A DNA stretch of 64,000 bases. It comes from an uncultured virus (IMG/VR IMGVR_UViG_3300032516_007629). Lineage: Duplodnaviria > Heunggongvirae > Uroviricota > Caudoviricetes. The DNA lies in the IMG/VR virus record IMGVR_UViG_3300032516_007629. The stretch is one strand, 5' to 3'. This document shows, piece after piece, positions 1 through 55,723 of the stretch (within the stretch, counting starts at the first letter, position 1; each line of letters opens with the position of its first letter). The notes under the pieces were generated by a model. It searched no databases. It was given only the letters and a program-made list of their open reading frames with translations, and was not told the origin of the DNA. The position numbers and the translations under genes are program-made.

Positions 1-632
1 ATGACCTATGCAAAGAAATTACAGAGTTGGTGCCGGTACGCTACTGTGGAGTACGTACCGGCTACCCGTATTTTATACTCTCTATCCGAGAGTGAGCTTG
101 CCGATAGAGCCTTTGTTATAGATCACTTAAAGAATATTGGACTTCCGGAAATGTCCGGCGTCGTGCGCGACATGTCGTCTACAGACTACCTGACATTTAT
201 AGAGGACATCGAAGACACTTCGGACGATGAGTTGCACTAACACGCTAGACCCTTCCTGTAACGTTCTAGTATATTAGTCATCGCCGCTATAGCAATTAAG
301 CTTGCCTTATTAAAGTTTTTACATTCGTCTATAATCACACTTAACTTCTCTGCTTTAAGCTTGTTGTCTTCAACAGCTAGGAGCAGTGCAAGTTTTGGTG
401 CAATGTCCCTAGCAATATGCTCTTTCGGCGATTTGATGAGGAACTTGATGAGGAACTCATCTTTTTTTTCGTTCATGTGCGACACCTCCCGTAATTTCAG
501 AGGAAATTATCCTAAGCGCAAATATTGTCGATGACTTATTTGCAAACCAGCTAATATTACAGGATTAAATTAAATATTGCACAGTGGATCGGGAGCTTGG
601 TACTATGTAATAAATCCTTAGCGAGGTATTTC

Positions 633-1238
633 ATGGGACTCCCGGTTTCTCTTCTTAGAGATATCAATTTATTAGATGTGGGCAACACCCTGAGTTTCTG
701 TGGTGTGATTTACGGCGATGCAAATACGCACTACCTTGCTTATTTGCCGGGTGAAATTGACGATTCTGTGGACAACATAGAGCACAGATATCTAGCGCTT
801 GACAATGCAGACTGGGAAAAAATCGTCAGGCAAACCGATCTGCTAGAGACTGAAGTATTGGCTAAGTCTGCGGATGGTAAGCTTTGCAAAGTGCTGGTGC
901 GTAAAAGCACTCGGCAGATTGAGCAAGGTGTTTCCTGGGCGGTTTTTCACAGAGATGGGTACAAATGTCGCTACTGCGGGATTCAAGGTGTACCAATGAC
1001 TGTAGATCATGCTCCTGTCTTGTGGGAAAATAGTGGTCCTAGTATTGAAGCCAATCTCGTGACCGCTTGTCGCAAGTGTAATAAGACAAGGGGCAATCTG
1101 CTTTATAAAGACTGGTTACAGAATCCTTACTATATTAAAGTGTCTAGTACACTTACCGAAAACGAAAGAAAAATAAACGAGGAGGTGGTTTTTAAAGAAC
1201 CTAATATTCCATTGCGGCTGCACCAGCGTTCAAGATGA
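633..1238 (+). CDS. HNH endonuclease-domain protein
   Basis: C-terminal RDGYKCRYCG...TVDH...NLVTACRKCN HNH/McrA-type motif. ATG 633 chosen because GAGG lies upstream. Confidence 0.8.
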   Translation: MGLPVSLLRDINLLDVGNTLSFCGVIYGDANTHYLAYLPGEIDDSVDNIEHRYLALDNADWEKIVRQTDLLETEVLAKSADGKLCKVLVRKSTRQIEQGVSWAVFHRDGYKCRYCGIQGVPMTVDHAPVLWENSGPSIEANLVTACRKCNKTRGNLLYKDWLQNPYYIKVSSTLTENERKINEEVVFKEPNIPLRLHQRSR

Positions 1239-1906
1239 AGTCTAACAGAAAAGACATCTCAGGGCAGCGGTTTGGGCGCTTGTACGTTCTTTCATATAGT
1301 CATTATAAGCCTGCACAGGCTTATTGGCATTGCCAATGTACTTGTGGAAAAATGACTATTAAAAGTGGTGCTGCCTTGCGTAGGGGGACTACTAGTTCCT
1401 GCGGATGCCTACAGATAGAAAGTGCTAGACAGAAACAGTTAGATAATTTTTACAAACACGGAAAAGCAGGGAAAAAAATCTATTCTATTTATATAAATAT
1501 GCTTTCGCGCTGCTCTAATAAGCAAGACCTGGCTTACCCTTATTATGGAGGTCGTGGAGTATCGGTGTGCGAAACCTGGCAAGAAAATTTTAGTAATTTT
1601 TTACAAGATATGGGCGAACCCACAGGTGAATTGACATTAGATCGAAAAGATAACAACGGTAATTATACCAAAGATAATTGTCATTGGGCTACCAAAAAAC
1701 AACAAGCCAATAACCGTAGAAATAATGTTAATGTGGAAAGAAATGGCGAGACCAAAACTCTTAAAGAATGGTGTGAATATTTAGGAATGCCTTACAAAAC
1801 TGTGCATAGGCGTATCGCTAAATATGATTGGGGGATTGAGGAGGCTTTGACTATTCCAGTAGATCGGGGTGGCGTTATTGCTCGGCGTATAAGAGGATCA
1901 ATATAA
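1235..1906 (+). CDS. Phage homing-endonuclease-like protein (HNH-related)
   Basis: DISGQRFGRL...WHCQCTCG...SCGC N-terminus, YGGRGVSVC and TLDRKDNNGNYTKDNCHWAT motifs typical of freestanding phage HNH endonucleases. Confidence 0.85.
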   Translation: MKSNRKDISGQRFGRLYVLSYSHYKPAQAYWHCQCTCGKMTIKSGAALRRGTTSSCGCLQIESARQKQLDNFYKHGKAGKKIYSIYINMLSRCSNKQDLAYPYYGGRGVSVCETWQENFSNFLQDMGEPTGELTLDRKDNNGNYTKDNCHWATKKQQANNRRNNVNVERNGETKTLKEWCEYLGMPYKTVHRRIAKYDWGIEEALTIPVDRGGVIARRIRGSI

Positions 1907-2063: not shown

Positions 2064-2342
2064 ATGATGAGTCTCTTGGCAAACATTCGAGATATCCTGT
2101 TTGATCGCCCCTACTCCGCAGCCGAACGCATAGCCTTTGGCGCACACGTAATTTTGTACCAAGATGTGTCTGCAAACATCAGCGCCGAAAGGACAAATTG
2201 CAACGGCACCTACGGCATGCGTCTTTGCATAAGAGATGGAAACGCTACAGTATCGATTGATCTGTCGCCAGATGCCGCATTTAATGTTGCCAACCAAATC
2301 AAAGATGTGGTCCAACGACTCGTACAGCAAAATAGAAGTTGA
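2064..2342 (+). CDS. Hypothetical protein
   Basis: ORF with AGGAG SD upstream. Confidence 0.6.
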   Translation: MMSLLANIRDILFDRPYSAAERIAFGAHVILYQDVSANISAERTNCNGTYGMRLCIRDGNATVSIDLSPDAAFNVANQIKDVVQRLVQQNRS

Positions 2343-2367
2343 CAAATCCAAAACGGATCGTTAGATT
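2339..2367 (+). promoter_or_regulatory. sigma70-type promoter of tRNA operon 1
   Basis: TTGACA-17 nt-TAGATT. Confidence 0.85.
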
Positions 2368-2418
2368 AAATACTAAGGGTACCCAGTGGGTGTCCTGAAT
2401 TTAATTTCAGAGGGTGTC

Positions 2419-2478
2419 TTGAAAAATAAATTTTACAGCATGTGGTATTTTTACTTCTCCTCGGAGCGAAGGGAATAA
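2419..2478 (+). CDS. Leader peptide 1, MKNKFYSMWYFYFSSERRE (attenuator of the Met/Phe/Tyr/Trp tRNA operon)
   Basis: TTG start after GAGGGTG SD. Eight of codons 5-13 are F/Y/M/W, matching the four downstream tRNAs. Confidence 0.85.
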   Translation: MKNKFYSMWYFYFSSERRE

Positions 2479-2497
2479 CACGGCTATTTGCCTAAAT

Positions 2498-2532
2498 AAA
2501 ACCCCGCTCCTACTTCAGGTGCGGGGTTTTTT
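2498..2532 (+). terminator. Intrinsic terminator (attenuator) before tRNA operon 1
   Basis: AAAACCCCGCTCCT-ACTTC-AGGTGCGGGG-TTTTTT. The 5' arm can alternatively pair with GGAGCGAAGGG (2463-2473). Confidence 0.9.
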
Positions 2533-2571
2533 GCGTTTAAGGAGGTGAAAGGACAAAGTGTTTTTATAGAC

Positions 2572-2648
2572 GGCGGTGTAGGCAAATTGGTTTGCCACCA
2601 TGCTCATAACGTGGATCAATGTGGGTTCGAGTCCCATCACCGCCACCA
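2572..2648 (+). tRNA. tRNA-Met(CAT), probably elongator
   Basis: Acceptor GGCGGTG/CACCGCC, anticodon arm CCATG-CTCATAA-CGTGG, GTTCGAGTC, encoded CCA. No initiator GGG/CCC stem. Confidence 0.9.
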
Positions 2649-2651
2649 CAT

Positions 2652-2728
2652 GCCAAGATAACTCAGCCAGCTAGAGTGTCCGAATGAAAATCGGAAGGTC
2701 GTGGGTTGAAATCCCACTCTTGGCACCA
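2652..2728 (+). tRNA. tRNA-Phe(GAA)
   Basis: GCCAAGA/TCTTGGC acceptor, TCCGA-ATGAAAA-TCGGA, CCA end. Confidence 0.92.
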
Positions 2729-2730
2729 AT

Positions 2731-2814
2731 GGGAGAGTCGCCTAATTGGACGGGCAACGGACTGTAAATCCGCCGATTAATTTCAAGTGAGTTCGATTCT
2801 CACCTCTCCCACCA
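2731..2814 (+). tRNA. tRNA-Tyr(GTA)
   Basis: GGGAGAG/CTCTCCC acceptor, CTGTAAA loop, extended variable region, CCA end. Confidence 0.92.
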
Positions 2815-2825
2815 TTTTTCCCAAT

Positions 2826-2899
2826 ACGGTAGTAGCTTAATGTAGAGCCTTGGACTCCAAATCTAAGAGGCGTCGGATCAACCCCGACCTACCGTGCCA
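2826..2899 (+). tRNA. tRNA-Trp(CCA)
   Basis: ACGGTAG/CTACCGT acceptor, TTGGA-CTCCAAA-TCTAA, G73-CCA. Confidence 0.88.
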
Positions 2900-2959
2900 C
2901 ATTGGACACCCGCCTCGCTAAATGTTAAAATCCAAAAAACCATTTAGCGCGAGGCATAT

Positions 2960-3322
2960 TTGAAAATCAAAGAACTAAAAGCAGTCCTAAATAGTATTGG
3001 TGATCGTTACGACGATTGGGATTTAGCTATCCCGCTGTCTAAGCCATCGATTGGGGCTATCGCTACCTGCAAAGTGCGAAGCATCAGTTTTGGTTTTGAC
3101 TGGGAACACGGCAAGGCTTTGATCAATCCGGAAGGTCGGCTAAACGAGAAAACAAAACCCGAAGATGTCTATCACGATGCCTCTGAATTTCTCCTGTGGC
3201 TTGCCACGAAGCCAATTAAACGAGAAACTTACGAAATGAGGGAAGCTAAAAGGATCCTGCTACGTGCAGGACACACCGAGGAAGATCTTTGTAAGTACCA
3301 AAGATATTTGCACGAGGTTTAA
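2960..3322 (+). CDS. Hypothetical phage protein
   Basis: ORF with GAGG SD and its own TGGACA-17-TAAAAT promoter. Confidence 0.65.
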   Translation: MKIKELKAVLNSIGDRYDDWDLAIPLSKPSIGAIATCKVRSISFGFDWEHGKALINPEGRLNEKTKPEDVYHDASEFLLWLATKPIKRETYEMREAKRILLRAGHTEEDLCKYQRYLHEV

Positions 3323-3330
3323 AGCAGGCT

Positions 3331-3558
3331 ATGTACAAACTAAATGTTGATCCAGACAAGCTTAAAAACCTTGCCAAAGACGAAGAGGGGTTTGATATCT
3401 CCGCTGGTATTCCAGTGATCCCACCACTACCAGATCGACCCTTTGACCCTAATGCTACCATAGCTATCTGCGGCGAGTGCGGACTTGAACTAAAAACTGT
3501 GATGTGTTATTCATGTTCAAACCCAAAGTGTCCTTGCTTTCCTCAAATTAGGTGTTAA
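3331..3558 (+). CDS. Small Cys-rich (zinc-ribbon-like) protein
   Basis: CGECG...CYSCSNPKCPC. Confidence 0.55.
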   Translation: MYKLNVDPDKLKNLAKDEEGFDISAGIPVIPPLPDRPFDPNATIAICGECGLELKTVMCYSCSNPKCPCFPQIRC

Positions 3559-3562
3559 AAAA

Positions 3563-3874
3563 ATGGGATGGATCTATTTACTTATAGCGATTCTACTAGA
3601 GTTTGCTGGTACTTTTAGCCTGAAGTATTCTGAAGGATTCACCCACCTCCCCCCCGTCTTCTATGCTTTATGCTTTTATCTTGGGTGCCTGCTTAGCTTC
3701 ACCCTTGCACTAAATCATCTAGAACTTTCCCGCATGTATGCCCTATGGACCGGCATCGGTACCATCCTGTCCGTGTTCGTTGGCTATTACTTCTTCAAAG
3801 AACCTCTAGGTGCGCTCAAGTGCTTTTCCATTTTCCTTATTGTTCTCGGCGTGTTAGGCACTATAACCTTTTAA
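3563..3874 (+). CDS. SMR/DMT-family small multidrug transporter
   Basis: 103 aa, four hydrophobic segments, WIYLLIAILLE (conserved TM1 Glu), KYSEGF, YALWTGIG. Confidence 0.9.
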   Translation: MGWIYLLIAILLEFAGTFSLKYSEGFTHLPPVFYALCFYLGCLLSFTLALNHLELSRMYALWTGIGTILSVFVGYYFFKEPLGALKCFSIFLIVLGVLGTITF

Positions 3875-3921
3875 GCCTCTGGTGCCAAAGATTAAGTAAA
3901 AATACTGGGGGTTCCAAAAGG

Positions 3922-4977
3922 ATGAAAAAGATCTTTATAACTGGTGCTACGGGTATGATTGGGGGTGAGATTGCGTTGAGGTTAGCTGCTACCTGTGAGG
4001 TGTCCTGTTTAACTCGCGGGGGTTCGCAGGAGGAGGCGCAGAAGCGGTTAGATCTTAGGTTAAAGAAGAGTCTTTTGTTTCGGGATCTGGGGATCAAAGC
4101 TGTTTTAGGAGATTTGCATCAAGAGGGTTTGGGTGTAGCGGGTGATTACGATATAGACGTGATAGTGCATGCGGCGGCTGAGACGGCTTTTAACGATGCT
4201 GATTCGTGCCGCCTCACTAACATTGAGGGTACGAAGAGGGTTATTGAGTTTGCTAAGCGTTGTAAAAATCCTCCATTATTATGTTACATAAGTACTGCAT
4301 GTAATGTAGGTGCGGTTACTAATACGTGTTTAAAGGAAGAGGATGGGTGTCGTTTAGACAATGAGCACCACAATGAATACACGAAGTCGAAGGCTATATC
4401 TGAGACCTTGATTCGCAATTCAGGGTTACCTTTCTTGATTATTCGTCCGCCTATTGTCTTAAGTGACAGTGTAAAGGATAGGGGATTTGCGCGTCAGATC
4501 TTTTGGTTTGCCCCTATCGTCTTTAAATTTAAAGCGGTACCAGTCTCCCCAACATCTAGGTTGGATATTATCCCAGTGAGTTACTTAGTGGAATATATCG
4601 ATAAGCTCTTAGCACTGCCTGAGAGGAAATATGACTGTTATAATATATCTGCGGGTGAAAAGGACTGCTTTACTTCTTTTGAATGGGTAGAAGCTATCCG
4701 CAAATTTAATAAGGCTTCTTATGCCCCTAAGCTGATACCTCCAGCAGAGTGGACTAAAGACGATTATAAAAAATATGTCAATACACCGGACCTGGCGAAA
4801 TCCTTTCGGAGCTTGCAGTATTATTTTCCCTTTATGACCATGGATGTCGTATTCAATAACGCTCGACTTCAAGAAGAGTTTGGCGTATTAAAAGTCCCTC
4901 CACTACATACCTATGTGGACACCATCCTAGCTCAAGTGTCGGAAGAGGAAGCTTTAGAGGAGAGCCAGGCACCGTGA
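3922..4977 (+). CDS. Extended SDR NAD(P)-binding oxidoreductase (fatty-acyl/thioester reductase-like)
   Basis: IFITGATGMIG Rossmann motif, HAAA, YISTA, YTKSK catalytic YxxxK, IIRPPIV. Confidence 0.85.
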   Translation: MKKIFITGATGMIGGEIALRLAATCEVSCLTRGGSQEEAQKRLDLRLKKSLLFRDLGIKAVLGDLHQEGLGVAGDYDIDVIVHAAAETAFNDADSCRLTNIEGTKRVIEFAKRCKNPPLLCYISTACNVGAVTNTCLKEEDGCRLDNEHHNEYTKSKAISETLIRNSGLPFLIIRPPIVLSDSVKDRGFARQIFWFAPIVFKFKAVPVSPTSRLDIIPVSYLVEYIDKLLALPERKYDCYNISAGEKDCFTSFEWVEAIRKFNKASYAPKLIPPAEWTKDDYKKYVNTPDLAKSFRSLQYYFPFMTMDVVFNNARLQEEFGVLKVPPLHTYVDTILAQVSEEEALEESQAP

Positions 4978-5062: not shown

Positions 5063-5091
5063 TTGACAGATCCATTTTCGTCTGCTAGATT
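5063..5091 (+). promoter_or_regulatory. sigma70-type promoter of tRNA operon 2
   Basis: TTGACA-17 nt-TAGATT. Confidence 0.85.
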
Positions 5092-5121
5092 AAATGGAGT
5101 AGGTAATTTTTGGAGATAAAA

Positions 5122-5190
5122 ATGTTCAACGTATCCATTAGTACAATTTGCACCTCGGTCTCAACGACCGGAGCGGGGCTTTTGCACTGA
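5122..5190 (+). CDS. Leader peptide 2, MFNVSISTICTSVSTTGAGLLH (attenuator of the Ile/Ser/Ser/Thr/Cys/Val tRNA operon)
   Basis: GGAG SD and ATG. Codons 4-16 are all V/S/I/T/C, matching the downstream tRNAs. Confidence 0.9.
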   Translation: MFNVSISTICTSVSTTGAGLLH

Positions 5191-5205
5191 TTTTGCGATG
5201 AACGC

Positions 5206-5255
5206 AAGCAAACCCCCCGCCTCCGAGAAAAAGGAAGCGGGGGGGTTTGCTTTTT
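5206..5255 (+). terminator. Intrinsic terminator (attenuator) before tRNA operon 2
   Basis: AAGCAAACCCCCCGCCTCC...GGAAGCGGGGGGGTTTGC-TTTTT. The 5' arm can alternatively pair with GGAGCGGGG (5170-5178). Confidence 0.9.
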
Positions 5256-5257
5256 AG

Positions 5258-5331
5258 GGGCGTGTAGTTCAATGATAGAGCACCTGCCTGATATGCAGAA
5301 GACGAAAGTTTGATTCTTTCCACGCCTACCA
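5258..5331 (+). tRNA. tRNA-Ile(GAT)
   Basis: GGGCGTG/CACGCCT acceptor, CTGC-CTGATAT-GCAG, ACCA end. Confidence 0.85.
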
Positions 5332-5341
5332 GAAGTTAAAA

Positions 5342-5557
5342 GTGCAAGCACGTAAGACATATAAACACATTAACTGCCTAGACACAGCGATAGAGGTTCA
5401 AAGGATATTGGGAGTATGTGAAGATGGAACATTGTCCGTATTAGTTTCTTGGTGGAATATACGCGCAAAGATTCCTAGGAAAATTGTTAGGTACCAGGCA
5501 GTTAACATAAGAAAGGAGGAGATAGATAACTGGAAAGAATGGCATAGGGCAGCCTAA
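5342..5557 (+). CDS. Hypothetical protein inside tRNA operon 2
   Basis: 71-aa ORF between tRNA-Ile and the HNH gene. Confidence 0.5.
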   Translation: MQARKTYKHINCLDTAIEVQRILGVCEDGTLSVLVSWWNIRAKIPRKIVRYQAVNIRKEEIDNWKEWHRAA

Positions 5558-5564
5558 AAACAAG

Positions 5565-5774
5565 GTGGCTCATTGGCGATTTCAAAAACAAAGGATAATG
5601 GCGCTTAGGGGCGGCAAATGTGAATTGTGTGGATTTAAAGAGTACCCGGAAATTCTTCATTCACACCATATAATCCCTCGATCTTCTGGAGGTAGTAATA
5701 ATGATGAGAATTTAAGATTAATTTGTCCAAATTGTCACGCTATTGAACACCACTTAATGCGTACTGCTAGTTAG
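5565..5774 (+). CDS. Small HNH endonuclease inside tRNA operon 2
   Basis: CELCG...HHIIPRSSGGSN...NLRLICPNCH. Confidence 0.85.
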   Translation: MAHWRFQKQRIMALRGGKCELCGFKEYPEILHSHHIIPRSSGGSNNDENLRLICPNCHAIEHHLMRTAS

Positions 5775-5787
5775 TGTTTTATTTTAC

Positions 5788-5875
5788 GGAGCAATGAGTG
5801 AGAGGCTTAAACTAGCGGTCTTGAAAACCGCCGTGGGTAAAACCACCATCCGTTCAAATCGGATTTGCTCCTCCA
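5788..5875 (+). tRNA. tRNA-Ser(TGA)
   Basis: GGAGCAA/TTGCTCC acceptor, GCGGT-CTTGAAA-ACCGC, long variable arm, CCA end. Confidence 0.92.
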
Positions 5876-5926
5876 TTTTTTCTTTGCAGTATACTACTAG
5901 GTAATATAAGTGACGTAGGTTAACAT

Positions 5927-6019
5927 GGATGCTTGGGTGAGTGGCTTAAACCATAACTTTGCTAAAGTTACGTACTCTATAAAGGGGTACCGTCCGTTCG
6001 ACTCGGACAGCATCCGCCA
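5927..6019 (+). tRNA. tRNA-Ser(GCT)
   Basis: GGATGCT/AGCATCC acceptor, TAACT-TTGCTAA-AGTTA, long variable arm, GCCA end. Confidence 0.92.
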
Positions 6020-6020
6020 T

Positions 6021-6099
6021 GCCACAATAGCTCAGTTGGTAGAGCAGTCGCCTTGTAAGCGAAAGGTCGGTTCGGGTTCGATCCCCCCTTGTGGCTCCA
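6021..6099 (+). tRNA. tRNA-Thr(TGT)
   Basis: GCCACAA/TTGTGGC acceptor, TCGC-CTTGTAA-GCGA. The T-stem carries an apparent 3-nt TTC bulge. Confidence 0.85.
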
Positions 6100-6110
6100 T
6101 TTTAGATTAA

Positions 6111-6191
6111 GAGGCAGTGTGCCGAGTGTTGAAGGCGGTCGCCTGCAAAGCGACAAAATCATCGTGGGTTAAAATCCCATCTGCCTCTCCA
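6111..6191 (+). tRNA. tRNA-Cys(GCA)
   Basis: GAGGCAG/CTGCCTC acceptor, GTCGC-CTGCAAA-GCGAC, U73-CCA. Confidence 0.9.
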
Positions 6192-6212
6192 ATAGATTTG
6201 ATAGAAAGTTAA

Positions 6213-6290
6213 GGGCGTATAGGTTAGTTGGTTAAACCGTCTCGTTTACACCGAGAAGATCCGTAGGTTCAAATCCTACTGCGCCTACCA
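6213..6290 (+). tRNA. tRNA-Val(TAC)
   Basis: GGGCGTA/TGCGCCT acceptor, TCTCG-TTTACAC-CGAGA, ACCA end. Confidence 0.92.
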
Positions 6291-30382: not shown

Positions 30383-30458
30383 GGACCCATAGCTCAATGG
30401 TTAGAGCAGCAAACTCATAATTTGTTGGTTCGGGGTTCGAGTCCCTGTGGGTCCACCA
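30383..30458 (+). tRNA. tRNA with CAT anticodon, probably tRNA-Ile2 (lysidine, reads AUA)
   Basis: GGACCCA/TGGGTCC acceptor, TAGCTCAATGGTTAGAGCA D-arm and CTCATAA loop resembling bacterial Ile2. Met identity is not excluded. Confidence 0.8.
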
Positions 30459-30467
30459 TTCTCCCTT

Positions 30468-31337
30468 CTACCACCTGATTTGCCCCTCTTTTAGCTTCTT
30501 AAACGTAATCCTTTCTACTTCCATCTTTTCTTCACCTTTATATTTTAACGTCTTCAAAACGCTCCTAGCATCGCGGCATAACGTGCGAAAACCATCTGGC
30601 TCCAAGGATGCCGAATGGTCTGTGCCCCGCCAAGTGCGATCTAGTGTGAAATGCCGTTCGATGTATGTAGCGCCTAGGGTAAGGGCGGCAATATCGGCGG
30701 CAATTCCTAGGTGGTGCCCGCTAAATCCTACAGCTTTTACCCTACCTTGGTACTTGGTAATCAGGTTAGGGATCTCAAGCAAGCATACATCTTCAAAGGC
30801 GACGGGGTACCCAGAAGTGCATGAATATATTACTAAATCTTGATGTCGTTTATTGACCTCAAAAAGTGAAACAATTTTTTCGATTTCATCCTCTTCAGTC
30901 ATTCCCAGAGACAAATGTATCTCACCTGTAAAACCCGTGATTAGTTCCATCAACAGAGGCTTGTTTAGGTTACACGCTGACGGCACTTTGATCATTTTTG
31001 GTTGTAATGTTATTATTTCCTTTGCTGACGTTACGTCCCACACCGAAGTGGAGTACTCTATGTGAGCCTCATCACACCAACGCTTTAGCTGTGCATGTTC
31101 TTCGATAGTGAACTCTAACCGTTCCCTGTGTTCGCCATAGCTTGCCCCATAGCTATTATACCCATTAGGGTGTGGAGCGTTGTACTCTTCCTCCGTAAGA
31201 AGCTCTCTAATGCAACGTTTTTGGAATTTTACAACGTCTGCTTTAACAATGTGGCTAGCCACTTCAATCATCTCTTTGGCTATTTTAAGCTCACCCTTGT
31301 GATTGCACCCGATCTCCGCTATTAGTTTAACGTTCAT
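30468..31337 (-). CDS. neuB: NeuB-family nonulosonic acid (Neu5Ac/KDN-type) synthase
   Basis: LIAEIGCNHKG, DVVKFQKR, IKVPSA, GFSGH, IERHFTLDR...DHSASLEP. Lacks the C-terminal AFP-like domain. Confidence 0.92.
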   Translation of the reverse strand: MNVKLIAEIGCNHKGELKIAKEMIEVASHIVKADVVKFQKRCIRELLTEEEYNAPHPNGYNSYGASYGEHRERLEFTIEEHAQLKRWCDEAHIEYSTSVWDVTSAKEIITLQPKMIKVPSACNLNKPLLMELITGFTGEIHLSLGMTEEDEIEKIVSLFEVNKRHQDLVIYSCTSGYPVAFEDVCLLEIPNLITKYQGRVKAVGFSGHHLGIAADIAALTLGATYIERHFTLDRTWRGTDHSASLEPDGFRTLCRDARSVLKTLKYKGEEKMEVERITFKKLKEGQIRW

Positions 31338-32026
31338 GTTGATTCTCCGTGATAATGTTTTTTCATAGCCGCCTCCGCCATGTACCAATCCTCCGGTTCA
31401 TCAATGTCAATAGCCGTATATTCTGGCATCTCGAAAATTTCAACCTTAGTTGATAACCTATTTTTAAATATTCTAATATTCTTCACGGAATTGACGTAAA
31501 ATGCTCCGTTTTCCATAAGCGTCCCTGCGAAGTCTTGGCGTCGTGGTCTATTTAGGTAGTCATAGTTTATGGGAGAACCAGCGTCACCCCAAAAAAATCT
31601 CTTTACTCTTGAGCAGGACAAGACAGAAGATTTTCCCCCGCTGTTCAAATATCGGAGAATTCCCCCCTCGTAGTCTTCCGTCCTGGTCAAAGGGCAAGTT
31701 GCTTGAGATAATAAAAAGATCGTCTCATCAGAGATGTGTTGTTTCTCTATAAACTCCAAGATAACACTTTCTGTCGTTGATGCATCCTCTGCATTTTTGG
31801 GATCTCGGTCGTAAATCTTAACTTTGCCAAAAGCAAAGTTGCTAACTACATCTTTGATATCCAGGTTATCCGTCGCTACATATATCTTATTGATGCTTTC
31901 GACTGCCGACAACGCCCGTAGGTTCCAATATACTAGTGGCTTCCCGCAGAAATCCTTTATGTTTTTCAATGGTATCGACTTGCTTCCACCACGCACAGGG
32001 ACGAAAGCAATTAAATTAGGAGCCAT
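31334..32026 (-). CDS. neuA: CMP-nonulosonate (acylneuraminate) cytidylyltransferase
   Basis: PVRGGSKSIPLKNI, QATCPL, RPRRQD, ENGAFY, DIDEPED. Confidence 0.92.
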   Translation of the reverse strand: MAPNLIAFVPVRGGSKSIPLKNIKDFCGKPLVYWNLRALSAVESINKIYVATDNLDIKDVVSNFAFGKVKIYDRDPKNAEDASTTESVILEFIEKQHISDETIFLLSQATCPLTRTEDYEGGILRYLNSGGKSSVLSCSRVKRFFWGDAGSPINYDYLNRPRRQDFAGTLMENGAFYVNSVKNIRIFKNRLSTKVEIFEMPEYTAIDIDEPEDWYMAEAAMKKHYHGEST

Positions 32027-32057
32027 GATGTCCTGCCACATAAGTGAGTTAAATAAT

Positions 32058-33164
32058 TTAGGGTAAACATTTAAATAGACGTAAATAGGTTTGGGGATCT
32101 TTATGTTGTTCTTCAGTTAGAGTAAATTCTTTTATAAGCGTAAGAAATTTATCTACATCCTCACTCCAGTGTTCTCTTGAGAAAAACTCTGCTGTTTCCT
32201 CCAGTGAAGTTGGCGGTTTGGTATAAACTATATCCGCAGCAGAGTAGTAGGTTTTACCCAAGACTATAACTTTTTTACCTAAACAAAGTGCCTCAAATCC
32301 AGCGGTGCAGCTTACGGTAATAACGTAATCCGCAGCATTCATTAAATCAAAGCCGTTCACATCTCGGCCTAAGGTAAGGGTACCTTCTAGTATCTCTTCA
32401 TCGTCTGGTGCTTTGGGGTGTCTTTTATAAATAACCTCATATTTGCTACTATCAATAACTCGTGTACACCATTGTTGGAAGCACTTCGTCTCTTCAAATG
32501 TTGAGCCGAAACCGGGAATGTCCTGTCTGACCAGATGGGTCAGAACTTGAAGAGGAACGAAAACTAATCTCTTTGTCTTGTCTAAACCATAGCGTTCAAA
32601 AATCTCATCTTTGCTATATATAATATTGCCCTGTGCGGCATCCTTAAGAGATGCTAACCACGGCAGATCTAACTGAAGTGTGTCTTTGCGCTGTTGGTAT
32701 ATGCGGGGAAGGTTGCTGGTTGTATGGAAACCCCCAAAGTTGAAAAGATACCAACTTGGTTTCCTATACATCCACATGGAGGTGAAATCTTTGTGAGTCC
32801 TGTCAAGCCTACAACTCAGGACATCTTGGCATATTACCGGAATTCCTCTAGAGCTGAAAAAGTCGTTTAAATAAACATCCTCATTCCAAAACACGACTCC
32901 CGTAAAATTATATTTATCACATAAAGGGTTCAATGTATTATCTGACAAATAGAACCAAGGGGAGTCTATGGTTTCAACTACAACGTTAGAATACGAGGAG
33001 ATATTCATGCTCGTTACCAACTCCGGAGTAGTTAAGATTACTATTTTTTGGCAGTAGTCTTTTAAACGACCTACTATGTCAACAAATAGTGAAAGTGGCC
33101 AGTCCCAAGGTGTCATAAATAGTAGGGTCTCGGCTTCGGTTAAATTTTTATAGTGCGTGTTCAT
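32058..33164 (-). CDS. Capsule-biosynthesis (KpsC/S-like) GT-B protein, candidate nonulosonate transferase
   Basis: VFVPLQ, YKRHP, VITVSCTAGFEALCLGKKVIVLG. Confidence 0.75.
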   Translation of the reverse strand: MNTHYKNLTEAETLLFMTPWDWPLSLFVDIVGRLKDYCQKIVILTTPELVTSMNISSYSNVVVETIDSPWFYLSDNTLNPLCDKYNFTGVVFWNEDVYLNDFFSSRGIPVICQDVLSCRLDRTHKDFTSMWMYRKPSWYLFNFGGFHTTSNLPRIYQQRKDTLQLDLPWLASLKDAAQGNIIYSKDEIFERYGLDKTKRLVFVPLQVLTHLVRQDIPGFGSTFEETKCFQQWCTRVIDSSKYEVIYKRHPKAPDDEEILEGTLTLGRDVNGFDLMNAADYVITVSCTAGFEALCLGKKVIVLGKTYYSAADIVYTKPPTSLEETAEFFSREHWSEDVDKFLTLIKEFTLTEEQHKDPQTYLRLFKCLP

Positions 33165-33166
33165 AC

Positions 33167-34978
33167 CTAAGCTTTTAGACCCCAAAATTCCAGCCAAGCC
33201 TTTTCTCCCAAAACTATTGGAGGTTGACCTTGAACACAACTCGGTGTGCCATCGTCTATGCGTGTTATTACGGTACCATCTGTGTCGATTAACTTCGTCT
33301 TACACTTATGAGCCGCCATAACAAAGGATCGCTCTATTACATGTGCTAACGTACCACATCTCTGACCACCCTCATCTTCAAAATTATAATTAGATAGGAC
33401 ATCTAATAAGATGTGGAGTATATCGACTCTCCCATAAAACATTGACCCAGCAATAAAAACATCTGTTCCATTTGAACCTATACGATTAGCAAATTCGGTG
33501 ACCCTAGGTTTAGTTTGAGGCAAAGTATAGTGCAGTGGTAATAGATGTCCCTTAGGACCCACAAGACCAATCGTAAAATCTTCTTTCAACTTTGTTACTA
33601 TGGATGGGTTAAGGAGCGTAGTAAGTAAATCAGTTCGCCATTGCTTATTTAACTTTGTATGTAGCTTTAAAAAATGTGAGTATTTACCTAGTATTCTAGT
33701 TTTCACCGTCGTAATAAAAGGTAATATATCCTTACCCCTGTTATCATAGCTGTCTATGGTAGCTGTAGTTGAAAACTCTCCCACAACGGCAGCAACATCA
33801 TAATGTTTATCTTTGGTGGTGGTGATAAATAAATCAATTTCTTTAGAAGAATAACATTTTAACACCTCAGCTAGGATTTCTCTCAAAATATCTGGGTAAT
33901 ACGCATGAATGACTACGGCTAATTTAGTAGTCTCGTAACTTACTTCTGTTTTGCTGCTTCCGGTTTGGTTTGCCTCTATTAAGGCTTCTTTTGTCGCTCG
34001 TAAATAGGCATCGCCAAACTTTATATCCGGCTCTAAATGTGCGCCCTCTCCCCACTCATTCCACGCATTTATAAATACTGTATTATGATGGCTTTTTTTA
34101 AATGAAGCCAACAACCTCTCTCGATACATCTCAGGTGTTGATCCATAAAAAATGTGTGCAGCTTTTCCCCGTCTCGGTGTGTTGTCCCACGATGGGCAAA
34201 CACATTTGAAGACCTTAAACGGTTTGTCTCCGCAGACTAGTCCCTTATAGTTATAAATTTTACCACTGAAATTTTGGACTGGGGTAGGCGCTGGGTCAAC
34301 GAAGAGGTCGTTGCTTTGCACACCATGAGGGGGAAATTCAAGAGCGCAATCAAACGAAGTGTGATCCTGTGACCCTCGTGTAAGAGTATTTACCACATAT
34401 AACTCCCCTATTCCATTCTCTCTACACCACTCCCGCCAACGCATAACTGTAGCTGCGATATCTTGAAAAAGGTCTAGGCGATATACGCTAATAAGAGGTT
34501 TACCCTCAATGCGAATATACCGTGGGTCTAACAGATAAGGTTTCAATGACGCTATAAAGGCAATGTCGTCTTCAGCGTTATGCCTCTGCTGCACCAATAT
34601 CTCATTTTCCGACCCATCCCACCGCCTACTCCACGTTTCATTAGCCCACATTAAACAAAATGGCATGTCTAGAGAACTATCTCTTAAGAACATCTCTAAT
34701 GGCTTGTCAAGTAGTTTGCGCCCATTAAACCAATAGTAGTAGAAACAAAACCCTCCAATACCATACTGCTTTGCTAAGTCAATTTGATGACGAAAAGTCT
34801 GAGGATTCATCAAATCGTAGTAGCCATCGCGTGGAATGTGTGGCTGGTAATGCCCCTCAAAAATAGGAGTGGCTTTTTTAACATTCGTCCACTCGGTGAA
34901 ACCCTCGCCCCACCACTCATTATTTTCAGGTACTTCATGGAATTGAGTGAGATAATAACAAATCACCTGAGCCATCAT
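33167..34978 (-). CDS. WbsX/GH99-like domain fused to an RgpF (rhamnan synthesis F)-like domain
   Basis: YYLTQFHEVPENNEWWGEGFTEWTNV, FINAWNEWGEGAHLEPD. C-terminal VIHAYY, NRGKDILPF, KLHTK, AHVIER. Confidence 0.88.
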   Translation of the reverse strand: MMAQVICYYLTQFHEVPENNEWWGEGFTEWTNVKKATPIFEGHYQPHIPRDGYYDLMNPQTFRHQIDLAKQYGIGGFCFYYYWFNGRKLLDKPLEMFLRDSSLDMPFCLMWANETWSRRWDGSENEILVQQRHNAEDDIAFIASLKPYLLDPRYIRIEGKPLISVYRLDLFQDIAATVMRWREWCRENGIGELYVVNTLTRGSQDHTSFDCALEFPPHGVQSNDLFVDPAPTPVQNFSGKIYNYKGLVCGDKPFKVFKCVCPSWDNTPRRGKAAHIFYGSTPEMYRERLLASFKKSHHNTVFINAWNEWGEGAHLEPDIKFGDAYLRATKEALIEANQTGSSKTEVSYETTKLAVVIHAYYPDILREILAEVLKCYSSKEIDLFITTTKDKHYDVAAVVGEFSTTATIDSYDNRGKDILPFITTVKTRILGKYSHFLKLHTKLNKQWRTDLLTTLLNPSIVTKLKEDFTIGLVGPKGHLLPLHYTLPQTKPRVTEFANRIGSNGTDVFIAGSMFYGRVDILHILLDVLSNYNFEDEGGQRCGTLAHVIERSFVMAAHKCKTKLIDTDGTVITRIDDGTPSCVQGQPPIVLGEKAWLEFWGLKA

Positions 34979-35048
34979 TTGCCCTTCTTAATTATTAAAT
35001 AATTATTAAATAATTAATCTATGAAGCGCATGAGAACAGGTGATTATG

Positions 35049-35140
35049 TGGCTGGGATGGTGGGATTTGAACCCACGAAGAAGCTTCCGCCTCTTGCCAG
35101 AGTCAAAGTCTGGTGCCTTAAGCCGCTCGACCACATCCCG
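35049..35140 (-). tRNA. tRNA-Gln(TTG) with atypical long variable arm
   Basis: CCAGA-CTTTGAC-TCTGG, 7-bp variable stem AAGAGGC-GGAA-GCTTCTT, C1xA72, G73-CCA. Confidence 0.85.
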
Positions 35141-35228
35141 ATAAAAAATCAAGGTGTAGCCTCACTGTCGCAATGTCCTATTGTTGAAGAAACCTCGAAT
35201 ATTTTAACATACAAATCCTTTTAAATAT

Positions 35229-35304
35229 TGGAGCGGATGATGGGACTCGAACCCACTTTCTTCAGCTTGGAAGGCTGACGCTAGACCAGTTTAGCTTCAT
35301 CCGC
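35229..35304 (-). tRNA. tRNA-Gly(TCC)
   Basis: GCGGATG/CATCCGC acceptor, TCAGC-CTTCCAA-GCTGA, U73-CCA. Confidence 0.92.
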
Positions 35305-35311
35305 AACCTTG

Positions 35312-35385
35312 TGGAGCCGATAGGGAGAATTGAACTCCCTCCCGCACACTGGCAGTGTGCCATGCTACCGTAACACTTTATCGGC
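35312..35385 (-). tRNA. tRNA-Gly(GCC)
   Basis: GCCGATA/TATCGGC acceptor, GCACA-CTGCCAG-TGTGC, U73-CCA. Confidence 0.92.
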
Positions 35386-35387
35386 AT

Positions 35388-35464
35388 TGGTGGAAGTAGT
35401 GGGACTCGAACCCACGAAAAACTTGGTTGCAAACCAAGTGCAATTGCCGCTATGCGATACCCCC
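35388..35464 (-). tRNA. tRNA-Ala(TGC)
   Basis: GGGGGTA/TACTTCC acceptor with G3:U70, CTTGG-TTTGCAA-CCAAG. Confidence 0.92.
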
Positions 35465-35499
35465 ATTACGAACCTTTAGACTTTTCTCCTTTCCTTTAG

Positions 35500-35577
35500 T
35501 GGGGTGAATGACGGTACTCGAAACCGCATTATGCCGCCTTCACAGGGCGGTGATCTTCCTCTTGATCTACATCCACC
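35500..35577 (-). tRNA. tRNA-His(GTG)
   Basis: G-1:C73, CCGCC-CTGTGAA-GGCGG, CCA end. Confidence 0.92.
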
Positions 35578-35592
35578 ATGTGGCTGTTAAGA

Positions 35593-35668
35593 TGGCTCCC
35601 CAGGTCCGACTCGAACGGACATTTTCTTGATTAACAGTCAAGTGCATTGCCAAATCTGCCACCGGGGA
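35593..35668 (-). tRNA. tRNA-Asn(GTT)
   Basis: TCCCCGG/CTGGGGA acceptor, CTTGA-CTGTTAA-TCAAG, G73-CCA. Confidence 0.92.
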
Positions 35669-35698
35669 ATAAGTACACTCCTAGCACACTTAGAAACT

Positions 35699-35727
35699 AA
35701 AAAACCCCGCTTCATCGGCGGGGTTTT
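35699..35727 (-). terminator. Intrinsic terminator (attenuator) before tRNA operon 3
   Basis: Minus strand AAAACCCCGC-CGATGAA-GCGGGG-TTTTTT. Confidence 0.9.
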
Positions 35728-35750
35728 GGTTTCTTCTTAAGACTGTTCTT

Positions 35751-35822
35751 TCAGCTTAAACCAATACCCCTAGAGCCATTACCGGCTCCATGATTTGCTT
35801 GGTTATTTTGCTGAACGAACAT
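35751..35822 (-). CDS. Leader peptide 3, MFVQQNNQANHGAGNGSRGIGLS (attenuator of the Asn/His/Ala/Gly/Gly/Gln tRNA operon)
   Basis: GGAG SD and ATG. Codons 4-16 are all Q/N/A/H/G, matching the downstream tRNAs. Confidence 0.9.
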   Translation of the reverse strand: MFVQQNNQANHGAGNGSRGIGLS

Positions 35823-35867
35823 TTTCTAACTCCAAAATACTCTATGAGGGATTTTCCCTACTCTTTT

Positions 35868-35896
35868 AATCTTAGCACCACTTTCGCCGGAGTCAA
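35868..35896 (-). promoter_or_regulatory. sigma70-type promoter of tRNA operon 3
   Basis: TTGACT-16/17 nt-TAAGAT(T) with TG extended -10. Confidence 0.75.
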
Positions 35897-36534
35897 GATT
35901 TTTTTTTGGATAATTCTGAGATCCGCCAAGCTAGGTTTTCCCTAGCTGTCTTTTCCCACTCTGTCTTTACATAATAGATGCGTTTTCTTTTAAGAAGCGT
36001 TTTAAGAAACTTGATATGACCTTTAAGAAAGGCTTTTTCTCCGTACACATCTGCTAGTTCTAATCGCACATTTTCACTGTCTTGCAAAAACTCTTCTCTA
36101 GATTGCGCGAAGCTTTGCAGATCTAAGTCTAAGACTAGTTGTGTGAGCTTAGAAATATTCTCCTGATCTTTATCATGATGCCCGGTGGCATTTATAGCTT
36201 CGGTAACCGAGACGATATCTAAATCAATCCTAGACTCTAAAAGAGACGAGTCGGACTCAAAATGTATCTTTAGTTTATTGATCATATAAAGCGAGATGGA
36301 CATGGCTTCATTGATGCCTGGTGGACACATTTTTCTACTATATTGCAGATCATGGTAGATGATGCACTCAAGTAGGACTGATAGTCTAGAGTGGTCTTTG
36401 TCCACCCATCTAAGCATATTATTTATATGCTGCAAATTATGATATTTGCGGTGTGGTAGGTTGTACAGTGATTTTATTTTTTCACGACGCCTAGGCGTGT
36501 AATTTAGGATATCAAAAGCTTCGTCTATATTCAT
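35893..36534 (-). CDS. HD-superfamily metal-dependent phosphohydrolase
   Basis: RKYHNLQHI, IIYHD, VLDLDL, VRLE. Confidence 0.85.
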   Translation of the reverse strand: MNIDEAFDILNYTPRRREKIKSLYNLPHRKYHNLQHINNMLRWVDKDHSRLSVLLECIIYHDLQYSRKMCPPGINEAMSISLYMINKLKIHFESDSSLLESRIDLDIVSVTEAINATGHHDKDQENISKLTQLVLDLDLQSFAQSREEFLQDSENVRLELADVYGEKAFLKGHIKFLKTLLKRKRIYYVKTEWEKTARENLAWRISELSKKKS

Positions 36535-36553
36535 GCTTAGATACTACCACAAA

Positions 36554-37129
36554 TCAATCTGGCGGGGGTACTTTATTTTTAGATGCCGGTGTTAGTCTAT
36601 ACCCTCTTTGTCTTAGATCTTTTTCTACAAGAAAGCGTAGATATCTACTGACACCTATGGGTTTACCTTTTGGGCTTCGCATATCCCGCACCACTCTATT
36701 TACTAGGTCTCTAATATGTGGGGGTACTGCGGGTGGGGTGAGGTGGACAAGTTCTTCGGTATCGAACATAGAGAAGTCGGGGGAAGAAGATGCTTGTTTA
36801 TTTTCTGGATTTTCTTTATCCACGCCAAGCATAGCGGTCATGGCTAGATATAAGCAGTTCTCCCTAGCTTTTTGGTTATCGGGATAGAGTTTCTTTAGAA
36901 GATCGGGGACAAGGAGGCGCTTTTTATCGTTCCTAATGGAGGCTTCTATTTGGTGAAGCGCATGATGACAATGGGCATCAAGGATAGCAATATTTGCACG
37001 AGTATCTTGCCCTCCTTGTGCTTTTTTTATTTTGTGATGCTCGTGCATGGAAATTCTAGGGAATACTTTTCCACAGCAGTCGCAAGCAAAGGTGTCGAGA
37101 CCACTGGCATCTTTTAGAAAAACAGGCAT
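36554..37129 (-). CDS. HNH-like domain protein
   Basis: CDCCG...HEHHKIKKAQGGQD...NIAILDAHCH. Confidence 0.7.
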   Translation of the reverse strand: MPVFLKDASGLDTFACDCCGKVFPRISMHEHHKIKKAQGGQDTRANIAILDAHCHHALHQIEASIRNDKKRLLVPDLLKKLYPDNQKARENCLYLAMTAMLGVDKENPENKQASSSPDFSMFDTEELVHLTPPAVPPHIRDLVNRVVRDMRSPKGKPIGVSRYLRFLVEKDLRQRGYRLTPASKNKVPPPD

Positions 37130-54660: not shown

Positions 54661-54727
54661 ATTTCCGGTTTGACTACTCCGCTGCGTCATGCAATCCTAC
54701 CGACACACACAATTAAGGGTTGGTAGC

Positions 54728-55723
54728 ATGGGAACAAAATCTACGCACAAGGCTCCGGTTATTCGTTTAAATCGGGAAAAGCATCCGAATGCAGACAGGA
54801 TGTTTATTCAACGGGTGGGTGGTTGGCAGGTATGTGGAAGCATAGCGGATTGGGAAAACCATGATTTGGCGGTGTATATTCAACCGGATTCGGTAGTGGA
54901 TGTTAGACAACCGGAATTCTCGTGGCTAAGTGATCCAAAGATTTTTCATGCAGCGCAACCTGACAACTCTTATTTACATCATGTAACGGCTAAGAGGCTT
55001 CGTGGTGTTATATCCTACGGTTTCTTGGCTAGAGCGCCTTCTGGTTTAAACGAAGGTGACGATGCAGCAGAAGCACTTGGTATAACTCGTTTCGATCCTA
55101 TCTTGCCGCCAGGGGTAACGTTACCGCCTTCTGGCTATAGGAAGGATTATGATTTAGAGGCTTTTGAGGCTTTTTCTAATGTCCTTTTGAAGGATGGCGA
55201 AGAAGTTATTCTTTTAGAAAAACTTAACGGCGTTAACGCACGGTTTTGCTATGTTGATGGTCGGCTGCATGTAGGTTCAAAAAATGTGTGGCTTGAACCT
55301 TCGGATTCTGTGTGGTGGAGAGTTGGAAAACAATTACCTAGCGCCTTTGTGGACTTCTTAAAGAGTAATCCAAATATTACTGTCTATGGTGAGATCTTTG
55401 GCTATGCAGGTAATAATACCAAACTACGCTACGGTCTTGCTCCTGGACAACTGGATTTTAGAGTTTTTGATCTATTAAGAGATCAAGAATTTGTTAACTT
55501 CGATGAGTGTGCTACACTAGTTACTAGTGCTGGTGTTAAGACCGTCCCTGTGGTTTTGCGTACACCCTATAGCGAAGATGTATGCCGTCTTAACACCAAG
55601 GGACCTACGCTTATAGAAGGCGCTAAGCATGGCAGGGAAGGGATTGTCGTGCGCTCCACGCAAGAAAGACAAGAGCTTCAAGGTCGAGTTAGTCTCAAAT
55701 TAGTGGATTGGGAAAATGCTTAA
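54728..55723 (+). CDS. RNA ligase (Rnl2/DRB0094-like) with N-terminal OB-type domain
   Basis: KHPNADRM, KRLRGVISYG, EKLNGVN motif I, VYGEIFG, FRVFD, REGIVV, SLK. Confidence 0.9.
   Translation: MGTKSTHKAPVIRLNREKHPNADRMFIQRVGGWQVCGSIADWENHDLAVYIQPDSVVDVRQPEFSWLSDPKIFHAAQPDNSYLHHVTAKRLRGVISYGFLARAPSGLNEGDDAAEALGITRFDPILPPGVTLPPSGYRKDYDLEAFEAFSNVLLKDGEEVILLEKLNGVNARFCYVDGRLHVGSKNVWLEPSDSVWWRVGKQLPSAFVDFLKSNPNITVYGEIFGYAGNNTKLRYGLAPGQLDFRVFDLLRDQEFVNFDECATLVTSAGVKTVPVVLRTPYSEDVCRLNTKGPTLIEGAKHGREGIVVRSTQERQELQGRVSLKLVDWENA

Follow-up and report, generated by a model that had tools for sequence, protein, structure and literature searches.

Can a phage notice that particular tRNAs are running short in its host and transcribe the matching tRNA genes in response? 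The question is raised by a locus in a 64,000-nucleotide (nt) stretch of DNA from an uncultured virus of the Caudoviricetes (IMG/VR record IMGVR_UViG_3300032516_007629); this whole stretch is referred to below as the window. On its minus strand, six tRNA genes lie behind a short open reading frame (ORF) and an intrinsic terminator, and from the sequence it had been predicted that the ORF is the leader of an attenuator that precedes the tRNA array. Sequence, folding, and comparison with other loci all supported this claim. With a probability of roughly 0.8, we consider the locus to be a classical ribosome-mediated (leader-peptide) attenuator whose product is tRNA and which would put the supply of decoding capacity under feedback control during infection. 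Arrays of tRNA genes are known from large phages such as T4 and T5, and why and when phages use their tRNA genes is debated, with proposals that invoke codon bias, the decay of host tRNA, or an escape from defences that cut tRNA. The anatomy of the locus, the codon match between leader and array, the competing RNA helices with their register, and the recurrence of the design were computed here.

Organization of the leader and the tRNA array

Read in the direction of transcription (minus strand, 35896 to 35049), the locus begins with a promoter (35865..35896) that consists of TTGACT, a 17-nt spacer, and AAGATTAAA, a motif common to both sister units in the window. The same site was listed in a promoter scan, with TG preceding the second hexamer. 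A small 5' hairpin follows and then a Shine-Dalgarno sequence, GGAG (35830..35833, read from the sequence), with an ATG 7 nt downstream, at 35822. This ATG opens the leader ORF, which has 23 codons plus a stop codon (35751..35822) and encodes MFVQQNNQANHGAGNGSRGIGLS; its codons 4 to 16 (35775..35813) form the regulatory run. Three segments of the leader RNA are relevant for the switch. Region 1 (35799..35821), the 5' portion of the ORF, is paired to the ORF tail in the minimum-energy fold without a ribosome. Region 2 (35758..35770) lies in the ORF tail and is the 5' strand of the antiterminator, and its partner, region 3 (35720..35732, from pairing and folding), overlaps the 5' arm of the terminator. 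The terminator scan placed the intrinsic terminator at 35691..35727, with a hairpin (35727..35701) of 10 pairs, 6 of them G-C, a loop of 7 nt, and a U-tract that extends to 35691.

The first tRNA gene starts about 25 nt past the U-tract. In the array (35049..35668), ARAGORN called tRNA-Asn(gtt), His(gtg), Ala(tgc), Gly(gcc), Gly(tcc), and Gln(ttg), and Rfam RF00005 matched all six. The leader/array region is intergenic, with the nearest long ORF ending at 35893. The promoter lies upstream of the leader, and it is the sole promoter-like site before the array and precedes the terminator; in the promoter scan of 34000-37000, no minus-strand promoter-like site was found between the terminator and the first tRNA gene (35700 to 35668). 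Thus, the array should be reachable only by readthrough of the terminator.

The leader is spelled in the codons of its array

If the leader senses the tRNAs encoded behind it, its codons should be those read by the array. Indeed, codons 4 to 16 form an uninterrupted run of 13 codons for the amino-acid set of the array, Q/N/A/H/G. Compared with all short ORFs of the window (n = 1204; 10 to 40 codons, six frames), the leader ORF has the longest run of these five residues, and the runner-up reaches only 6. With a background frequency of the set of 0.192, the probability of a 13-residue run in 22 codons is 4e-9. Under strict wobble rules, the array tRNAs read 14/22 leader codons (start codon excluded), namely, 12 of the 13 codons of the run plus the GGT codons at positions 19 and 21 in the tail; the count becomes 15/22 if the tgc tRNA reads all four Ala codons, which adds GCC. 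Every anticodon of the array has a codon in the leader (6/6), and the two Gly isoacceptors are told apart, with GGA assigned to the tcc tRNA and GGT/GGC to the gcc tRNA. The order Asn-His-Ala-Gly-Gly-Gln behind the leader, the exclusive use of Q/N/A/H/G in codons 4 to 16, and the correspondence of GGA and GGT/GGC to the two Gly tRNAs (TCC, GCC) had all been part of the original prediction, and they were confirmed by ARAGORN and Rfam, by translation, and by codon-anticodon matching, respectively.

The leader treats both CAA and CAG as codons of the putative tRNA-Gln(ttg). The gene called as this tRNA (35049-35140, minus strand) is 92 nt long, and its long variable arm, with a stem of 7 pairs, is of the kind seen in Leu, Ser, or Tyr tRNAs. 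It also has a C1-A72 mismatch and G73 and is 100% conserved in a strain variant, L043, that is described below.

Terminator and antiterminator are predicted to be mutually exclusive and in register with the ribosome

The leader RNA folds with -59.3 kcal/mol (z = -5.64 versus shuffles). At minimum energy, region 1 and the ORF tail form a hairpin of -31.9 kcal/mol, and the terminator, with a fold energy of -21.6 kcal/mol, is intact. The competing structure arises from the complementarity of 35770..35758 to 35732..35720, which extends over 12 of 13 positions; this fold of regions 2 and 3 has -20.4 kcal/mol and is thus near the terminator in energy. Both the 12/13 pairing and the inclusion of the terminator 5' arm in the partner segment had been claimed before, and both held true, the latter as an overlap of 35720-35732 with the hairpin at 35727..35701. 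The most stable duplex that the ORF can form with the terminator 5' arm has -18.0 kcal/mol, which was matched by only 1 of 1000 dinucleotide shuffles of the upstream region.

The effect of a translating ribosome was simulated by cutting the transcript before the terminator 3' arm, placing a 30-nt footprint at each codon, and folding the remainder. In these cut-transcript folds, the antiterminator forms when the A site is at codons 2 to 13 and is unable to form when the A site is at codons 14 to 22; once the A site has reached codon 23 or the stop codon, no part of the terminator 5' arm is paired. The blocking positions, 14 to 24, begin with the final three run codons and continue through the tail to the stop codon. 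The register obtained in this simulation agrees with the classical attenuation model. Altogether, each of the defining sequence features of a ribosome-mediated attenuator is present and in the correct register: a promoter upstream, an ORF with a start codon and ribosome-binding site, a run of cognate codons, a terminator, and an antiterminator that excludes it. Attenuators of this type regulate genes for the synthesis or charging of the amino acid that is sensed; here, the regulated genes are six tRNA genes instead.

The proposed mechanism would work as follows. Transcription would start at the promoter (35896..35865), and a ribosome would load on the 23-codon leader while the polymerase proceeds. 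With ample charged tRNAs for Gln, Asn, Ala, His, and Gly, the ribosome would reach the tail or the stop codon and cover region 2, the terminator hairpin would form, and transcription would stop ahead of the tRNA genes. If any of these tRNAs is scarce, the ribosome would stall within codons 4 to 13, with region 1 occupied and region 2 free. Free region 2 would then pair with the 5' arm of the terminator, and the polymerase would read into the array. The new phage tRNAs would relieve the stall, giving negative feedback on the decoding supply. We infer that the leader is translated and that the switch has this direction in vivo, with loss of host tRNA during infection as the probable physiological signal.

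Two sister units in the window have the same design

The promoter motif TTGAC-N19-AGATTAAA is present exactly three times in the 64 kb, each time heading a leader unit; the chance expectation is 0.21, and 0 of 100 shuffles reached three. Both sister units are encoded on the plus strand. The first, A1 (2339..2899), has the promoter motif, a leader, a terminator at about 2502-2533, and genes for tRNA-Met, Phe, Tyr, and Trp. Its leader encodes MWYFYFSSERRE (2440-2478, or from an in-frame GTG at 2386). The second, A2 (5063..6290), has the promoter motif, a leader that encodes MFNVSISTICTSVSTTGAGLLH (5122-5190), a terminator at about 5206-5252, and an array of tRNA-Ile, an HNH ORF, tRNA-Ser, Ser, Thr, Cys, and Val. 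Each of the two leaders ranks first among the short ORFs of the window for the amino-acid set of its own array, so that each of the three arrays would have its own sensor, spelled in its own codons. In addition, each tail can pair with its own terminator arm: the duplex has -14.7 kcal/mol in A1 (reached by 30 of 1000 shuffles) and -23.2 kcal/mol in A2 (0 of 1000 shuffles). By duplex energy, the A2 antiterminator (leader at 5122-5190) is stronger than that of the unit at 35049..35832, and the original prediction that the antiterminator at 35049..35832 is the clearest of the three was not upheld.

The start of the A1 leader may be at the in-frame GTG at 2386, which lies behind AGGG; the ORF would then span 2386-2478 on the plus strand, and the ATG at 2440 would encode an internal Met. 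With this start, the run FYSMWYFYF would also sense the tRNA-Met of the array. The GTG at 2386 sits in a stable 5' hairpin, which makes the start uncertain.

Leader units in a second phage lineage

Alignment of homologues of the HD phosphohydrolase encoded next to the leader gathered 80 metagenome loci. Through this neighbouring gene, at about 26% identity, a second lineage (lineage B) was reached, which comprises the loci L074 and L107 plus three IMG/VR contigs found by using the leader as a pattern. The order is again HD gene (4001-4462 in L074), leader, terminator, and array, with a different array content. The leader in lineage B encodes MRRHSIHTISISTSSSDQAGLLVTQN (opening MRRHSIHTISISTSSS), and codons 4 to 16 again form the run. 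Behind it lie tRNA-Ser(cga), Ser(gct), Ser(tga), His, His, Thr(cgt), Thr(ggt), an ORF, Ser(gga), Ile(tat), and Ile(gat). Under strict wobble rules, all of the 9 distinct anticodons of this array are matched in the leader (ATA/tat, ATT/gat, ACG/cgt, ACC/ggt, TCA/tga, TCC/gga, TCG/cga, AGT/gct, and CAT/gtg). Two variants of the MRRHSIHTISISTSSSDQAGLLVTQN leader were found whose run differs only by two synonymous changes and one in-frame 3-nt deletion. Their tail codons carry nonsynonymous changes, with frame and tail length kept, and the spacer after the stop codon is scrambled. As judged from the sequences, this pattern is that expected of a translated frame. A blastn search with the lineage-B locus gave no match among isolated phages.

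A second lineage-B unit was found on a 59.8-kb contig with 35 tRNA matches, where a leader encoding MKRRGNMDNFVNWFGFNRAADKDGGSCPLERVE (opening MKRRGNMDNFVNWFGFNRAADKDGG) stands ahead of a 19-tRNA array. Of its 32 residues, 28 belong to the set of the array, with a run of 25. The tail nearly copies the 3' arm of the terminator, and the duplex of -19.0 kcal/mol was reached by 0 of 1000 shuffles. For lineage-B leader 1, 26/32 codons are read by array tRNAs under a four-way U34 rule. In the lineage-B array on L125 (reverse complement, 2168-4220), several inter-tRNA gaps of 100 to 330 nt hold tRNA-like pieces not called by ARAGORN, and 35 Rfam tRNA matches on the contig compare with 33 ARAGORN calls in the part examined.

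A further locus, L047 (1580-2066), whose HD protein is 39% identical, has a strong terminator right ahead of tRNA-Gln, Tyr, and His and a GTG-started ORF, MQNTSRHYQDSGGWG, that contains His-Tyr-Gln. From its sequence, it may be a third, weaker case; it was not counted as a third lineage, because the match is short and the duplex was reached by 42 of 1000 shuffles.

Specificity of the leader-array pairs

A detector for terminator-then-tRNA units found three in the window and two in the lineage-B contig; the scan for such units with codon-matched ORFs covered about 140 loci. If each leader is made for its own array, permuting the pairs should weaken the match. When every leader of the five units was scored against every array, the true pairing had a summed run of 69, and of the 120 possible leader-to-array pairings only the true one reached this value, the next best being 57. 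In all five units, the best partner segment for the terminator arm is located in the final third of the ORF and ends 4 to 14 nt before the stop codon, and the observed duplex energy was reached by 0 to 30 of 1000 shuffles. The five peptides share composition only, no sequence.

Among 18 arrays in the 80 HD loci, runs of at least 5 were confined to the lineage of the window and lineage B. In two unrelated large phage contigs (29 tRNA matches), no upstream ORF had a cognate run of more than 3. The detector found neither a terminator-then-tRNA unit nor a cognate leader in the 20-kb tRNA region of Xanthomonas phage XacN1, a phage with an HD homologue, and two further contigs with HD homologues (7 tRNAs) had no such unit. 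A hairpin and ORF before a tRNA-Gly gene in an unrelated phage contig were rejected as a candidate, since the ORF is a lipoprotein-like small gene and not a leader.

A natural exchange of tRNA genes behind an unchanged leader

Two close relatives of the locus were found. One, L042, is 99.97% identical to the window. The other is the strain variant L043, in which the flanks are 99% identical and the leader peptide is unchanged, and in which the segment from just past the U-tract to the conserved tRNA-Gly(tcc) gene is replaced. In the swapped segment, ARAGORN called tRNA-Asn (two genes), His, Ala, and Gly(gcc); a small ORF separates the His and Ala genes. Identity to the tRNAs of the window with the same anticodon is only 62 to 69% for these genes and 100% for Gly(tcc) and Gln. 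Since the divergent genes carry the same anticodons, the tRNA genes were exchanged while the anticodon set spelled in the leader was kept. HNH endonuclease genes lie in or beside tRNA arrays of the window, at 5565-5774 (plus strand), 597-1906 (plus strand), and 36554-37129 (minus strand), and the one inside the A2 array (5565-5774) has a Pfam HNH match with E = 2.8e-13. Their presence fits with the cassette exchange seen in L043.

A four-gene sugar cassette (30468-34978, minus strand) lies between the array and a lone tRNA-Met(cat) gene (30383-30458, plus strand), which has its own TTGACA-type promoter and neither a leader nor a terminator ahead. The cassette encodes a WbsX/RgpF glycosyltransferase, a capsule-synthesis protein, a cytidylyltransferase, and a NeuB sialic-acid-type synthase. 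In comparison with L043 (5811-6311), it is absent there, and the tRNA-Met segment follows directly after tRNA-Gln in reversed orientation.

A blastn search of the locus against isolated phages matched only short tRNA-Gly pieces. In viral_contigs, there was no exact match to a 32-nt stretch of the tRNA-Asn gene, and there were no close relatives of the HD protein or of a 410-amino-acid protein. Relatives of a 603-amino-acid glycosyltransferase, found at 12 loci, were not syntenic and had no adjoining array.

Arguments against the attenuator and alternative explanations

Several observations weigh against a feedback attenuator of the kind proposed. The ribosome-free cut transcript also adopts the antiterminator at equilibrium, and termination without a stall thus needs either kinetics, with the ORF hairpin forming first, or a ribosome that covers region 2. 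With a 30-nt footprint, a stall at codons 14 to 16 masks region 2, so that the last three cognate codons would not signal in a simple model. The copies of this unit (L042 and L043) are near-identical only; therefore, covariation is lacking in its helices, and comparison lends support only through analogous units. In sister unit A1, no Shine-Dalgarno sequence lies close to the ATG. Not all tRNA genes of these phages have a leader: it is absent, for example, from the tRNA-Met at 30383 and from the Gly/Arg arrays of lineage B, which lie directly behind protein genes. Finally, a leader of this kind senses charged tRNA and alone cannot separate loss of tRNA from amino-acid starvation.

This last point leads to the alternative that survives best. 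The attenuator may be the same, with host amino-acid starvation as the signal for which it evolved, as in the trp, his, and ilv leaders. Leader-peptide attenuators do respond to charged tRNA, and the structure found here is of that type. However, extra tRNA does not relieve a shortage of amino acids, and the feedback would remain open; because more tRNA relieves the stall only if tRNA itself is short, tRNA shortage is the signal that would be useful. Furthermore, the match reaches down to isoacceptors (6/6 here and 9/9 in lineage B), which a sensor of amino acids does not need, and the RNA ligase encoded in the window fits with a concern for tRNA integrity, although as circumstantial evidence only. 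We therefore regard starvation as an unlikely signal. Several causes could lead to a loss of isoacceptors: decay of host tRNA driven by the phage, the action of host anticodon nucleases, or mismatched codon usage.

It is considerably less probable that the leader works without translation and that the codon run pairs directly with tRNA anticodons, as a T-box specifier does. A run of cognate codons is necessarily complementary to the anticodons, but this one lies in frame behind GGAG and ATG, and the lineage-B variants differ within their run only by synonymous changes and an in-frame deletion. Moreover, neither the T-box nor another Rfam leader family was found at threshold, and no acceptor-binding bulge was seen. 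Hardly credible is the idea that the terminator, which lies 166 nt past the stop codon of the HD gene, just ends that gene and leaks, the ORF being a chance frame or an unrelated micropeptide, in view of the dedicated promoter between the HD gene and the ORF, the first rank of the ORF among 1204 for the set of the array (P = 4e-9), and four further units of the same design that are each matched to a different array and whose peptides are alike in composition only.

Genome context

The window looks like a part of the genome of a large tailed phage. It encodes a ribonucleotide reductase, helicases, several HNH endonucleases, an RNA ligase, and a tail sheath and is only distantly related to isolated phages (about 30% protein identity). 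The gene for the HD-type phosphohydrolase (35893-36534, minus strand) has a match to PHROG 19425 and no Pfam family match. It lies just upstream of a leader-gated array in both lineages, with about 26% identity between them, and this position may point to a functional tie to tRNA metabolism. The RNA ligase gene (54689-55723, plus strand) has a Pfam RNA_ligase match with E = 2.6e-23. RNA ligases of this kind are used by phages to mend cut tRNAs.

Relation to known regulatory systems

Leader-peptide attenuators that respond to several amino acids are known to precede the enterobacterial trp, his, leu, thr, ilvGMEDA, and pheA operons. The units described here share with them the promoter, the short ORF with regulatory codons, the mutually exclusive antiterminator and terminator, and the U-tract of the terminator. 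They differ in that they control tRNA genes rather than biosynthetic enzymes, in the phage setting, and in the run, which in the unit at 35049..35832 combines codons for five amino acids and covers each isoacceptor encoded in the array. The pheST genes of Escherichia coli, which encode an aminoacyl-tRNA synthetase, are also preceded by a leader-peptide attenuator. For Streptomyces, the part of the study by Seliverstov et al. (2005, PMC1262725) that deals with trpS and leuS predicts leader-peptide attenuators before these genes. As there described, attenuation is likewise applied to a component of translation that serves the same codons, but the product is a synthetase protein for one amino acid (PMC1262725), whereas here it would be several tRNAs themselves.

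No Rfam leader family reached its gathering threshold in the window, where only tRNA passes. The subthreshold scores (bits/threshold) were 21.5/41 for Trp_leader (RF00513), 19.9/50 for Leu_leader (RF00512), 13/49 for His_leader (RF00514), 12.1/55 for Thr_leader (RF00506), and 18.9/55 for Phe_leader (RF01859). T-box riboswitches are RNAs of conserved fold to which uncharged tRNA binds directly, with no need for translation. Like them, the leader described here would sense the state of specific tRNAs and choose between antiterminator and terminator; unlike them, it is proposed to do so through a translated leader. There was no T-box match at the gathering threshold in the window and none up to E = 10 in 35680-35900. 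The tRNA arrays of phage XacN1 resemble those of the window as clusters of tRNA genes interspersed with genes for HNH homing endonucleases, but differ from them in that no leader/terminator unit was detected in the 20-kb region. In the full-text literature, no account of leader-peptide control of tRNA genes was found; papers available by subscription only, such as older work on the tRNA region of phage T5, were outside the reach of this search. The mechanism, leader-peptide attenuation, is thus a known one, and what sets these units apart is tRNA as the regulated product.

Implications for phage tRNA arrays

A codon-matched attenuator for each array would allow the phage to gauge the speed of decoding for a given group of codons and to answer with the tRNAs that read them. 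It would extend textbook leader-peptide attenuation to a new class of product, tRNA. More generally, and here we see the chances as evenly balanced, phage tRNA arrays may be inducible modules rather than constitutive helpers, each with a ribosome-read sensor of the decoding capacity of the host: loss of any isoacceptor would induce the matching block and thereby close the loop, sensor and array would be kept matched through cassette exchange, and the whole would be a "tRNA on demand" unit that is portable and present in at least two distant lineages. Such a leader would be a small, programmable element with which the supply of several tRNAs could be sensed simultaneously. It would also be a ready-made reporter of the tRNAs that become limiting during infection, which makes the debated question of why and when phages use their tRNA genes directly testable.

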